From a virus (taxonomy: Duplodnaviria > Heunggongvirae > Uroviricota > Caudoviricetes), in the IMG/VR virus record IMGVR_UViG_2684622775_000004, positions 1-9,552 of that record: 9,552 nt of DNA; one strand, written 5' to 3'. The notes under the pieces are model-generated. The model was not told the DNA's origin and did not search any database. It saw only the letters and a list, made by a program, of their open reading frames with translations. The position numbers were made by a program, and so were the translations under genes. Shown here piece after piece: positions 4,520 through 5,727 of the stretch (its first letter is position 1; each line of letters starts with the position of its first letter).

Positions 4520-4912
4520 ATGTCTGAACCCTTATCCGGTTCCGGCACGGCTGCGGCGCTCGGCGGGGCGACGGTATTCGGGCTGTTTACCGGAACGGAT
4601 TTCGGGATTGTGTTTGGCGCATTTGCCGGGGCGCTGTTTGTGGCCACAATGCCGCAGGCACTATCTGCCTGGCGTGTGGCAGCGCATTTTCTGGTGTCGT
4701 TTATCGTTGGCGTGCTGGGTGCGCATGTGCTGTCAGCCTGGATTGCATCAAAAACAGGTTATGACGGTACATCGGCGGATGCACTGTGTGCGGTGCTGGT
4801 GGCGGTGGTGTCGGTGAAGATTCTCTCGTTCATCCACCAGCAGGATATTGCATCGCTGGTGTCTGGCCTGTTCTCCCGCCTGCGGGGTGGAGGAGGCGGC
4901 AATGTTAAGTAA
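4520..4912 (+). CDS. Putative holin: small multi-TM membrane protein with Gly-rich charged tail
   Basis: ATG 4520 with AGGAG (4508-4512). 131 aa with 3-4 hydrophobic segments (TVFGLFTG..., FGIVFGAFAGALFVA, HFLVSFIVGVLGAHVLSAWIA, ALCAVLVAVVSVKILSF) and a ...RLRGGGGGNVK tail. First gene of the lysis cassette. Start preferred over track start 4451, which would span the terminator. Confidence 0.6.
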   Translation: MSEPLSGSGTAAALGGATVFGLFTGTDFGIVFGAFAGALFVATMPQALSAWRVAAHFLVSFIVGVLGAHVLSAWIASKTGYDGTSADALCAVLVAVVSVKILSFIHQQDIASLVSGLFSRLRGGGGGNVK

Positions 4913-5180
4913 CCTTCCCGGATTGCTGAATGTGGCGTTATGCACGGTTATCGTGCTGACGCTCTTTTTTTATCGTCGTCGTGATTCCAGACATAAACCG
5001 CTGATGTCATGGCTGGCCTGGTTGCTGATGCTGCTGTATGCCTTTGCGCCCCTCAGCTATCTGTGTGGTCGCCCGTTAGCAACGGGCTGGCTGGAAGTGT
5101 TTTTTAACCTGCTGTTCTGCGTGCTGGTGGTTCGTGCTCGTGGGAACGTTTCAAAAATCTTTGTATTACGAAGGCGCTGA
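4902..5180 (+). CDS. Putative second holin/antiholin-like membrane protein (92 aa, 3 predicted TM segments)
   Basis: ATG 4902 with GGAGG (4889-4893), overlapping the end of the preceding gene by 11 nt. Hydrophobic segments LLNVALCTVIVLTLFF, MSWLAWLLMLLYAFAPLSYL and WLEVFFNLLFCVLVV with basic loops. Ends 1 nt before the endolysin start. Confidence 0.5.
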   Translation: MLSNLPGLLNVALCTVIVLTLFFYRRRDSRHKPLMSWLAWLLMLLYAFAPLSYLCGRPLATGWLEVFFNLLFCVLVVRARGNVSKIFVLRRR

Positions 5181-5181
5181 G

Positions 5182-5727
5182 ATGAAGTCGAAAGATGAAA
5201 TTTTTGATGCTGTTCTTGGCAAAGAGGGCGGCTACGTCAACCACCCTGATGATAAAGGTGGTCCGACTAAATGGGGCATTACTGGAAAAGTTGCCCGTGC
5301 ACACGGTTATCAGGGGGATATTCGTGACCTGACGCGTGGGCAGGCCCTCGAAATTCTTGAAGCGGACTACTGGTACGGGCCACGTTTTCACAAGGTTGCG
5401 AGCCTGTCTCCGGAGATCGCTGCTGAATTGTGTGATACCGGCGTAAACATGGGGCCGTCAGTGGCATCCAGAATGCTTCAGCGCTGGCTTAATGTATTTA
5501 ACCAGAAAGGAGAGTTGTATCCGGACATTGATGCAGATGGTTGTATCGGCCCACGTACCATTAATGCGTTACGCGCCTATTTGTCAAAACGTGGCAGGGA
5601 TGGTGAGTTGGTGATTCTGACAGCGCTAAACTGTACGCAGGGAGATCGCTACCTTGAACTGGCAGAAAAACGTGAGGCTAATGAATCGTTCGTGTATGGC
5701 TGGATGAAAGAGCGCGTGGTGGTGTAG
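5182..5727 (+). CDS. Endolysin, glycoside hydrolase family 108-like N-terminus with a C-terminal peptidoglycan-binding-type domain
   Basis: N-terminal hallmark ...LGKEGGYVNHPDDKGGPTKWGIT... matches the GH108 EGGYxxxxxDxGGxTxxGIT motif. 182 aa, no signal peptide or SAR-type N-terminal TM segment. Track start 5134 rejected in favour of ATG 5182 directly after the holin-2 stop. Confidence 0.85.
   Translation: MKSKDEIFDAVLGKEGGYVNHPDDKGGPTKWGITGKVARAHGYQGDIRDLTRGQALEILEADYWYGPRFHKVASLSPEIAAELCDTGVNMGPSVASRMLQRWLNVFNQKGELYPDIDADGCIGPRTINALRAYLSKRGRDGELVILTALNCTQGDRYLELAEKREANESFVYGWMKERVVV

Follow-up and report, generated by a model that had tools for sequence, protein, structure and literature searches.

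Organization of the lysis cassette

The analysed window is a stretch of 9,552 nt (positions 1 to 9,552 of IMG/VR record IMGVR_UViG_2684622775_000004). Positions 4520–5727 almost certainly hold a phage lysis cassette, in which two small membrane-protein genes, hol1 and hol2, are followed on the plus strand by the gene of a soluble endolysin. The initial annotation had proposed a non-lambda lysis cassette, and the Pfam and PHROGs identities of all three genes confirm it (PHROGs labels: holin, holin, endolysin). E. coli 1303 and others carry the same annotation of the trio. With equally high confidence, the prophage is a decayed lambdoid one of E. coli, and the region forms its late lysis module, of the phiP27/phiCTX type. 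The module consists of two mutually unrelated small inner-membrane proteins (profile comparison of hol1 with hol2 gave a probability of <1%), followed by a Sen1395/TtsA-type muramidase.

hol1 (positions 4520–4912, plus strand) starts with the ATG at 4520, with AGGAG upstream at 4508–4512, and stops with the TAA at 4910–4912. The product has 130 aa rather than the 131 first reported, and the reported Gly5 run was found at residues 123–127 of its C-terminus (...RLRGGGGGNVK). An alternative GTG start at 4451 was rejected, which would cross a terminator hairpin and has no ribosome site. This small polytopic protein, encoded two genes 5' of the endolysin, matches Pfam Phage_holin_8 (PF16931) over residues 1–124 of 130 with 82.1 bits (gathering cut-off 26.4) and PHROG 198 'holin' with an E-value of 6e-42. 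Hydropathy gives three to four hydrophobic segments and the AF2 model four helices with low confidence (pLDDT 58), and the topology is probably N-in/C-in with four hydrophobic helices. Helices 1–2 are rich in Gly and Ala, with a GAFAGA motif and invariant G33, A34 and G37.

hol2 (positions 4902–5180, plus strand) runs from the ATG at 4902 to the TGA at 5178–5180 and encodes 92 aa. It matches Pfam Phage_holin_3_7 (PF05449, formerly DUF754) over residues 10–87 of 92 with 76.3 bits (gathering cut-off 25.4) and PHROG 217 'holin' with an E-value of 3e-38. Both membrane proteins are therefore far above the curated cut-offs of holin families, and NCBIfam holds no model for either. Three hydropathy peaks (residues 5–23, 34–56 and 59–77) and three low-confidence AF2 helices (5–25, 32–54 and 63–91) agree with the three transmembrane (TM) segments described before for this 92-aa protein, and neither hol1 nor hol2 falls below two segments. 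hol2 carries a basic loop (RRRDSRHK) and a basic C-terminal tail, RARGNVSKIFVLRRR, and thus combines three TM segments with the charged tail of class-I holins. By the positive-inside rule, its layout would be N-out/C-in. The AF2 models of both proteins reach a pLDDT of 58–60 and only helix counts were taken from them, so the helix counts and topologies rest mainly on hydropathy and the positive-inside rule. The RGN motif of hol2 is invariant across phages of gamma- and beta-proteobacteria.

The two genes overlap by 11 nt. The Shine-Dalgarno sequence of hol2, GGAGGAGG (positions 4889–4896, plus strand), lies inside the codons of hol1 Gly124–126. In 225 of 236 loci the two genes share 11 or 14 nt, and a GGAGG-type motif was present within 18 nt 5' of hol2 in all 15 of the commonest upstream sequences, which cover 208 of the 236. 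Because the ribosome site and start of hol2 sit within the end of hol1, the two are likely translated as a coupled pair, and the earlier description of two separate, tightly coupled holin-family genes is upheld. When a lambda-type dual start was sought, hol1 and hol2 each showed a single N-terminal Met. An in-frame GTG five codons 5' of hol2 would add Glu-Glu and no basic residue, and it is GCG in 28 loci. A TTG at 4848 was also considered as the hol2 start and rejected, as it lacks a ribosome site.

The endolysin gene (positions 5182–5727, plus strand) starts with the ATG at 5182 after a gap of 1 nt, without overlapping hol2. Its 181-aa product comprises a GH108 N-acetylmuramidase domain (residues 9–91; Glyco_hydro_108, 88.9 bits, cut-off 21) and a PG_binding_3 domain (residues 95–179; 89.8 bits, cut-off 25). 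The N-terminus, MKSKDEIFDAVLGKEGGY, is hydrophilic by hydropathy and contains no signal or SAR segment. The initial annotation was accurate on all of these features. Full-length comparison gives 82% identity with Sen1395 (PDB 6V3Z; E 9e-105) and 68% with TtsA (6V40). Glu15 of its EGGY motif and Thr29 align with the catalytic Glu14 and Thr28 of TtsA, and the third triad position is Asn20, as in active Sen1395. Domains and catalytic residues are thus those of the N4 gp61/TtsA/Sen1395 type. The enzyme scored 72 bits against the NCBIfam equivalog NF040573 'holin-associated N-acetylmuramidase' (cut-off 240), which makes it a relative of that group rather than a member. Sen1395 of Salmonella is a crystallised, active muramidase (PDB 6V3Z) and a soluble two-domain protein in the crystal structures. 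Its overexpression halts Salmonella growth without a co-expressed holin, so enzymes of this class do not depend strictly on a holin.

The holin genes had also been described as GC-richer than the nearby AraC island. This is true of hol1 (0.588 versus 0.417 for the AraC gene) and does not extend to hol2 (0.505), which is close to the endolysin gene (0.507). The outlier is more probably the AT-rich AraC island than the holin genes, and Gly and Ala codons probably account for part of the hol1 value.

Upstream control and downstream boundary

A Q-family late antiterminator gene lies at positions 2217–2612 on the plus strand (Pfam Phage_antitermQ, E 2.5e-52; RefSeq 'antiterminator Q family protein' in E. 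coli 1303). On the same strand, a promoter scan found a promoter-like site at 2617–2646, Rfam identified an isrK-type leader RNA at 2653–2727 (79 bits, gathering score 50), and a terminator scan placed the terminator that ends this leader at 2707–2722. Modelled on the Gifsy-1 AntQ/isrK layout (PMC4825925), positions 2617–2727 would contain the late promoter and the first terminator. Two intrinsic-terminator-like hairpins follow on the plus strand. One, with a T-run, lies 3' of the AraC-family gene (positions 4365–4384; 8-bp stem with 6 GC pairs). The other, GGGCCGACAGTGGCCC followed by T6 (positions 4480–4495), has its stem end 24 nt 5' of the hol1 ATG. Loop variants included, the latter hairpin is found upstream of hol1 in 87 of 153 close relatives among viral contigs, and also within the KanR_FW primer of PMC12571312. 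Three terminators separate Q from the cassette, and this layout suggests that the cassette is Q-dependent. A tRNA scan of the window found no tRNA gene; relatives carry tRNA genes 5' of the holin pair.

No spanin, either as an i-/o-spanin pair or as a u-spanin, was found with the cassette, and positions 5728–6044 hold only a remnant of one small gene. This 47-aa ORF (positions 5910–6053, plus strand) is a truncated form of a small TM protein, as indicated by DNA alignment with CH4793 and a BLASTP match (52% over 29 aa, E 2e-6). In relatives its full counterpart precedes the o-spanin lipoprotein, and about 330 bp, the remainder of that module, are gone here. After the endolysin, relatives encode two TM proteins of 60 and 44 aa and a lipoprotein of 51 aa, the last of which is listed as the phiP27 o-spanin (PMC6139136). 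The present lineage has lost these small membrane proteins and the 51-aa o-spanin lipoprotein by deletion, and of the holin, endolysin and spanin that make a complete Gram-negative lysis cassette it keeps the first two. The initial annotation had missed this absence. The bor lipoprotein gene (positions 6045–6338, minus strand; Pfam Lambda_Bor, E 1.3e-30) was the sole credible match in a lipobox ORF search of the window and closes the lysis region, as it does in lambda. ISEc8 lies close by within the window.

Distribution and pairing of the two holin genes

Of 5426 complete E. coli genomes, 108 carry the annotated trio and 374 the holin pair (about 2–7%). Among these complete genomes, homology breaks at query positions 643–655, which correspond to window positions 5162–5174, at the hol2/endolysin junction. 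Either family was then used as query against viral contigs, and the best 80 matches per query gave 400 loci from four lineages. In 394 of the 400, hol1 is followed directly by hol2 on one strand. Five of the six exceptions lie at contig edges, and the sixth has both genes, not immediately adjacent. The enterobacterial, Burkholderia and Pseudomonas searches used single proteins as queries, the members being too divergent for a joint alignment. The same order is found in Klebsiella phage Seifer, mEp390, HK639, Burkholderia KS5/KS14 and Pseudomonas phiCTX. Neighbouring genes are co-inherited anyway, which weakens the pairing statistic, and strict co-occurrence is equally expected for a holin and a valued antiholin.

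The pair adjoins at least five types of soluble endolysin: M15 peptidase, GH19, GH108, PF11860 muramidase and GH24-like. None of 143 distinct endolysins beside the pair has a hydrophobic N-terminus (17-residue Kyte-Doolittle mean ≤1.28), compared with about 2.2–2.3 for SAR controls. This partnership with soluble endolysins and never with a SAR enzyme argues against a pinholin.

Comparison with known lysis systems

Since the paired-holin arrangement is already familiar and broadly annotated, the cassette is an ordinary feature and not a discovery. The additions made here are small: the near-obligate pairing, the overlap of the Gly tail with the ribosome site, a module boundary where hol2 meets the endolysin gene, and spanin genes that have been lost.

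Genes L28-L29-L30 of phiP27 (Recktenwald & Schmidt 2002) and the porcine STEC Stx2e prophages (PMC12571312) share with the window the 11-nt overlap and the terminator hairpin 5' of hol1. The phiP27 holin pair is 90% (hol1, L28) and 95% (hol2) identical in protein sequence to that of the window. In contrast, phiP27 has an M15-type peptidase in place of a GH108 enzyme as its endolysin, retains the 51-aa o-spanin lipoprotein, and carries stx2e genes upstream where the window has the AraC island. The LT-II prophages Rac-SA53 and SerU-LTIIb (KU052037, KU052038), annotated 'holin1 / holin2 / endolysin', have the same order and the same 181-aa GH108 plus PG_binding_3 type of enzyme. Their LT-II toxin genes lie directly 3' of the endolysin, where the window has the spanin remnant and bor.

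More distant relatives keep the same plan. In the virulent-type Klebsiella phage Seifer (Casjensviridae), gp35-gp37 follow the PF16931, PF05449, GH108/PG_binding_3 order of the window at 27–34% identity; its hol2 has a 20-aa N-terminal extension, and 3' of the endolysin come genes for an i-spanin-like membrane protein and for a product annotated as o-spanin. The record names them 'putative holin-antiholin' (twice) and 'soluble endolysin'. Both Pfam families stand in the same order directly 5' of the endolysin in Pseudomonas phiCTX (orf9-orf10-orf11) and in the Burkholderia P2-like phages KS5 and KS14, whose genes were confirmed as PF16931 and PF05449, and the pair is retained in 158 of 160 related viral loci. 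Unlike in the window, these holin genes abut without the Gly-run overlap, Rz/Rz1-type spanins are present, and the phiCTX orf11 endolysin is PG_binding_1 plus PF11860; PG_binding_1 is likewise reported for the KS5/KS14 endolysin (PMC3091744). The KS5/KS14 pair was labelled 'putative antiholin' and 'holin DUF754' by Lynch 2010 (PMC3091744). These labels, like those of Seifer, are predictions, and the initial annotation was right to make no firm assignment of hole-former and timing regulator.

With the lambda cassette (S105/S107-R-Rz/Rz1) the window shares the position after Q and before bor, the logic of a holin with a soluble endolysin and, probably, Q-dependent late expression. It differs from the lambda and P2 cassettes in having neither a dual-start holin nor a spanin. 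The lambda endolysin R is a transglycosylase, in place of which the window has a GH108 muramidase. A profile comparison of hol2 with lambda S gave a probability of <1%. The P2 endolysin is a GH24 lysozyme (PMC4684702), again replaced by the GH108 muramidase in the window.

Proposed function of the holin pair

We give a probability of about 0.5 to the explanation that the coupled pair supplies the holin function, with hol2 as the hole-former and hol1 as its obligatory partner. Q would modify RNA polymerase at the promoter just 3' of its own gene, and transcription would then pass the isrK terminator and the terminators at 4365–4384 and 4480–4495 into hol1. After coupled translation, both proteins would build up in the inner membrane and jointly provide the holin function. 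hol2, with three TM segments in an N-out/C-in layout and a basic, class-I-like tail, may be the hole-forming subunit. hol1, with four TM segments, may act as co-holin or timer and may itself be able to compromise the membrane. Sudden, large, non-specific holes would admit the folded 181-aa muramidase to the peptidoglycan. The outer-membrane step would not be encoded by the cassette, from which the small TM proteins and the 51-aa lipoprotein are deleted. A large-hole system rather than a pinholin is quite probable, and the reading of the pair as obligate co-holins is put forward tentatively. A wider proposal is rather doubtful: that PF16931 and PF05449 form an obligate heteromeric two-component holin, a distinct class shared by lambdoid, P2-like and Casjens-type phages whose hosts are gamma- and beta-proteobacteria, with stoichiometry set through the Gly-run/Shine-Dalgarno coupling and a spanin-less E. 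coli version serving regulated release rather than burst.

No functional study of the Phage_holin_8 or Phage_holin_3_7 families came up in literature searches with their Pfam, InterPro and TCDB identifiers. A 2025 study implicates the 130-aa hol1-type protein in Stx2e release (PMC12571312). When the hol1 homologue of a porcine STEC Stx2e prophage was replaced, enrofloxacin-induced Stx2e release was abolished, and the plasmid-borne homologue by itself restored it. Judged by the primer sequences, the deletion also took out the hol2 start codon. The assay followed the toxin content of supernatants after expression from a high-copy plasmid and did not measure the formation of holes. The pyocin holin Hol (PA0614) of P. 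aeruginosa, for which lysis data exist, was considered as a hol1-family member and rejected. It belongs to TC 1.E.20, distinct from the phiCTX type 1.E.56 (Ghequire 2015), and so gives no support for the function of hol1.

It is possible, though somewhat unlikely, that hol2 is the sole holin and hol1 a dedicated antiholin that delays the trigger, as LysA does for the P2 holin Y. hol2 has the class-I hallmarks (92 aa, three TM segments, basic cytoplasmic tail, position directly 5' of the endolysin), and a separate regulator gene is plausible because neither gene has a conserved dual-start motif. The P2 cassette Y-K-LysA-LysB/C, with a 93-aa three-TM holin and a 141-aa four-TM antiholin, is an architectural precedent only. 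By hhalign, neither hol1 with P2 LysA nor hol2 with P2 Y showed detectable homology (probability <1% each), and Pfam places P2 Y in a separate family (Phage_holin_3_2). Antiholins are usually dispensable, whereas hol1 was never absent from the 400 loci (best 80 matches per query) except in contig-edge cases. The annotation of the homologous KS5/KS14 genes by Lynch et al. 2010 favours an antiholin. In contrast, hol1 alone restored Stx2e release to a mutant that lacked both hol1 and the hol2 start codon (PMC12571312), which is unexpected of a pure inhibitor.

The reverse assignment, with hol1 (Phage_holin_8) as the hole-former and hol2 as a regulator or accessory second holin, is unlikely. Gly/Ala-rich helices line the hole in some holins, and helices 1–2 of hol1, with GAFAGA and the invariant G33/A34/G37, are of this kind. 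The sole experimental data also concern hol1, removal of which stops Stx2e release and expression of which restores or confers it (PMC12571312). However, that assay is indirect (periplasmic toxin, overnight cultures, high-copy plasmid), the C-terminal tail of hol1 is weakly charged, and the architecture of hol2 is more canonical, its invariant RGN suggesting more than a modulatory role.

That the cassette has ceased to serve phage lysis, being either an inert remnant or a domesticated release system kept by the host (type 10 secretion-like, as with TtsA), is improbable. The spanin genes are gone, ISEc8 is near, and the endolysin-then-bor layout without a spanin is kept at 95–99.9% identity in 13 complete genomes and also in 8 viral contigs. 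TtsA, 68% identical to the enzyme of the window, is an orphan muramidase that serves secretion, and its specificity is for LD-crosslinked peptidoglycan. The enzyme of the window shares the two-domain GH108 plus PG-binding fold family and the conserved catalytic Glu and Thr with both TtsA and Sen1395, and it resembles the phage-type Sen1395. However, Sen1395 cannot replace TtsA in toxin secretion, and the specificity residues of TtsA differ. The three ORFs are intact, their coupling signals are kept, and E. coli 1303 retains terminase, portal and head genes 3'. In pathogenic E. coli, relatives of the module adjoin the genes of the Stx2e and LT-II toxins, whereas the window has no toxin or cargo gene. 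Which protein makes the hole and sets the lysis timing bears on antibiotic-induced toxin release, and also on annotation, where the labels now given to the two holin genes range from holin, putative holin and putative antiholin to membrane protein and hypothetical protein.

A pinholin with a SAR-endolysin, in which one small protein depolarises the membrane and frees a tethered enzyme, was raised in the initial annotation, and two small membrane proteins are present. This reading is hardly credible, as the N-termini of this endolysin and its 143 counterparts are not hydrophobic and the 82%-identical Sen1395 is a soluble two-domain protein in crystals.

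Lysis genes and their relatives

The initial annotation of the window, two overlapping holin-like genes followed by a GH108-type endolysin gene at 4520–5727, was essentially correct. The three genes are real, and their coordinates and the overlap of the holin genes were borne out. hol1 (4520–4912) encodes 130 aa rather than the 131 aa first given and ends in ...RLRGGGGGNVK, hol2 (4902–5180, 92 aa) overlaps it by 11 nt, and the endolysin gene (5182–5727, 181 aa) begins 1 nt past the hol2 stop codon. Pfam places both small proteins in holin families, hol1 in Phage_holin_8 (PF16931, 82 bits) and hol2 in Phage_holin_3_7 (PF05449, formerly DUF754, 76 bits), and the endolysin matches Glyco_hydro_108 (89 bits) and PG_binding_3 (90 bits); all four scores exceed the curated cut-offs by a factor of three to four. 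The PHROGs labels are, in order, holin, holin and endolysin. Consistent with two membrane proteins, the hydropathy analysis gave at least three hydrophobic segments in each holin-like protein (three clear ones in hol2, three to four in hol1). It found no hydrophobic segment in the endolysin, which agrees with the proposed lack of a SAR or signal sequence. The AF2 models, of low confidence (pLDDT 58–60), contain four helices for hol1 (7–24, 28–43, 50–79, 84–122) and three for hol2 (5–25, 32–54, 63–91). By the positive-inside rule, the charge distribution would fit N-in/C-in for hol1 and N-out/C-in for hol2. The holin genes had also been described as more GC-rich than the AraC island, which holds for hol1 (0.588 against 0.417 for the AraC gene), but hol2 is just 0.505 and the endolysin gene 0.507. 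This contrast would stem mainly from the high AT content of the inserted gene, together with the Gly and Ala codons in hol1.

As a lysis module the cassette is ordinary: it is widely annotated and its components were already known. E. coli 1303 and eight further complete genomes carry annotated sequence with 99.9% identity to the 1.7-kb region, and RefSeq names the three products "putative holin", "phage holin family protein" and "glycoside hydrolase family 108 protein". In the Stx2e phage phiP27, L28 and L29 correspond to hol1 and hol2 (90% and 95% protein identity), and in the LT-II prophages Rac-SA53 and SerU-LTIIb the pair is called "holin1/holin2". The same two families stand in the same order directly ahead of the endolysin in mEp390, HK639 and Pseudomonas phiCTX (orf9/orf10), whose holin family was assigned to TC 1.E.56, separate from the pyocin holin family (Ghequire et al. 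2015). They also precede the endolysin in this order in Klebsiella phage Seifer, where both are recorded as "putative holin-antiholin", and in the Burkholderia P2-like phages KS5 and KS14, where Lynch et al. 2010 (PMC3091744) named them "putative antiholin" and "holin, DUF754". The pair of Actinobacillus phage vB_Apl-pPE4 (PP818812.1, 18166–18917) has 87–88% nucleotide identity to E. coli sequence, unexpectedly close for a phage recorded from A. pleuropneumoniae, a Pasteurellaceae host.

Function of the holin pair

Pairing was surveyed in 400 viral-contig loci, the best 80 hits for each of five queries (window-led and Seifer-led hol2 alignments, a Seifer-led hol1 alignment, phiCTX orf10 and KS14 gp29). 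A hol1-family ORF lies immediately 5' of a hol2-family ORF on the same strand in 394 loci; five of the six exceptions are at contig ends, and the other has both genes, not immediately adjacent. This shows a strong association rather than proof of mutual dependence, because neighbouring genes are inherited together and the survey was confined to the best 80 hits for each query. Among the 236 enterobacterial loci, the two genes overlap by 11 nt in 152 and by 14 nt in 73, and a GGAGG-type motif falls in the 18 nt preceding the hol2 start in all 15 commonest upstream sequences (208 of the 236 loci). In the window this ribosome-site motif is GGAGGAGG (4889–4896), within the hol1 Gly124–126 codons; therefore the "Gly5 tail" of hol1 is at least partly a footprint of the hol2 ribosome-binding site. 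Compared with each other, hol1 and hol2 are not paralogues. A few database proteins, P0029 (219 aa), P0098 (217 aa), P0119 and P0209 (155 aa), are recorded with PF16931 and PF05449 on a single chain, most simply explained by an indel or frameshift where hol1 and hol2 overlap in G-rich sequence.

The enzyme encoded after hol2 is an M15 peptidase in 100 loci, a GH19 enzyme in 87, GH108 in 37, a PF11860 muramidase in 6 and a GH24-like lysozyme in 2. None of the 143 distinct proteins encoded there has a hydrophobic N-terminal stretch; their highest 17-residue Kyte-Doolittle mean was 1.28, compared with about 2.2–2.3 for two SAR endolysin controls. Since the module serves five unrelated soluble enzymes, the data are best explained by large non-specific holes, and the earlier suggestion that the second holin is a pinholin partner is disfavoured.

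The near-universal pairing and the translational coupling are best fitted by a two-component holin, with hol1 and hol2 as a co-holin pair, to which we assign a probability of about 0.4. In a 2025 study of porcine STEC, enrofloxacin no longer induced Stx2e release once the 130-aa gene had been replaced, and hol1 by itself on a plasmid brought release back (PMC12571312). The primers map to 4470–4522 and 4913–4962 of the window, and the replaced stretch corresponds to 4523–4912. This "holin" knock-out also deletes the hol2 start codon and first three codons, a point absent from the paper's discussion, and its KanR ORF, which has no stop codon of its own, continues in the hol1 frame. Because the hol2 start codon is removed, the mutant probably lacks both proteins, and restoration by hol1 alone argues against hol1 as a mere inhibitor. 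It thereby weakens the reading of hol2 as the holin and hol1 as its antiholin, which appears rather unlikely, even though hol2 has a class-I-like architecture, its tail is strongly basic, TM3 is followed by an invariant RGN motif and its position adjoins the endolysin. The converse, hol1 as holin and hol2 as regulator, is less likely again. The release experiment, the only one there is, favours hol1, but that assay was indirect and used a high-copy plasmid. hol2 and hol1 resemble P2 Y and LysA in architecture alone, and the comparison found no homology to them.

Endolysin and module exchange

The endolysin is 82% identical to the Salmonella muramidase Sen1395 (PDB 6V3Z) over 180 residues and 68% identical to TtsA (6V40). 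Glu15 and Thr29 align with the catalytic Glu14 and Thr28 of TtsA, and the third catalytic position is Asn, as in Sen1395. For these enzymes the N-terminal domain was found to be catalytic and the helical domain to bind substrate, and overexpressed Sen1395 halted Salmonella growth (eLife 2020). Against the NCBIfam equivalog "holin-associated N-acetylmuramidase" the endolysin scored 72 bits, well short of 240.

A three-gene query matched 374 of 5426 complete E. coli genomes, with at least 80% of the query covered in 108. Most remaining matches were confined to query positions 1–643/655, placing the homology break at 5162–5174, the hol2/endolysin junction. Homology ends within 20 nt of the hol2 stop codon in about 250 E. 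coli genomes; the holin pair and the endolysin are therefore swapped independently of each other, with a sharp boundary between the two modules.

Outer-membrane step

Related prophages encode, after the endolysin, small membrane proteins (60 aa and 44 aa in RM11911, SA31-1 and E41; a single one of 37 aa in CH4793) and, behind them, a lipoprotein of 51 aa whose lipobox is LVGC; Kongari et al. 2018 (PMC6139136) list this lipoprotein as the phiP27 o-spanin. Compared with these relatives, the window lacks a stretch of about 330 bp that includes the gene for the lipoprotein. Its region 5728–6044 contains only a 47-aa ORF (5910–6053), residues 1–28 of which match the CH4793 membrane protein (52% identity, E 2e-6), and the lipobox ORF search of the window gave the lipoprotein gene bor as the only credible candidate. 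Endolysin followed by bor occurs in 13 complete genomes (95–99.9% identity) and in 8 of the best 80 closest viral contigs, 62 of which keep the o-spanin. The missing outer-membrane lysis genes, together with the ISEc8 insertion, mark the prophage as decaying. Without a spanin, lysis stays incomplete under conditions that stabilise the outer membrane, such as the presence of divalent cations, and this would apply to the prophage of the window.

The phiP27 i-spanin assignment of Kongari et al. looks doubtful. That 64-aa ORF has a TTG start and is antisense to a 90-aa ORF; the relatives instead have 37–60-aa TM proteins encoded just upstream of the lipoprotein. The annotated phiP27 ORF L32 (51 aa) overlaps the lipoprotein ORF in another frame (6069–6224 versus 6145–6300 in the phiP27 sequence L004).

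Regulation and gene order

The genes of the window follow one another as in a lambdoid prophage's right arm: DUF968/HNH, rusA, the late antiterminator gene Q (2217–2612), an ORF6N antirepressor-like gene (2886–3374), an AraC-family regulator gene (HTH_18/HTH_AraC; 3597–4340, plus strand), the lysis genes, bor (6045–6338, opposite strand to the lysis genes), a truncated DUF1398 gene (6563–6832, minus strand; profile positions 42–119 only) and an ISEc8-like IS66-family element (about 6900–9450, plus strand; ORFs 7001–7405, 7402–7749 and 7798–9336). On the plus strand, between Q and the ORF6N gene, Rfam identified a c4 a1/b1 target element (2640–2692), isrK sRNA (2653–2727) and C4 antisense RNA (2750–2835). 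This is the layout of the Gifsy-1 AntQ-isrK-anrP locus, where some transcripts pass through the IsrK terminator (PMC4825925), and 2640–2835 also matches the layout of the P1 immI c4/ant control region.

A promoter-like site (2617–2646) directly follows Q, and the scan found none between the AraC gene and hol1. Terminators or terminator-like hairpins lie at the isrK end (2707–2722), at 4365–4384 and at 4480–4495, the last with its stem ending 24 nt before the hol1 start. From this layout, the lysis genes would need Q-modified polymerase reading through all three. Of 153 close relatives, 87 keep the 4480–4495 hairpin, though its loop varies; a primer of PMC12571312 contains it too.

Between Q and the cassette, the AraC-family gene stands out as an AT-rich island; its position in relatives is taken by tRNA genes, a DNA methylase, stx2e or eplBA, and strain SA31-1 has the same AraC gene ahead of the same cassette but a different Q. 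With the IS left out, the window and E. coli ARS-C101 share 99.9% identity, and E. coli 1303 carries an IS3 at about the same place as ISEc8.
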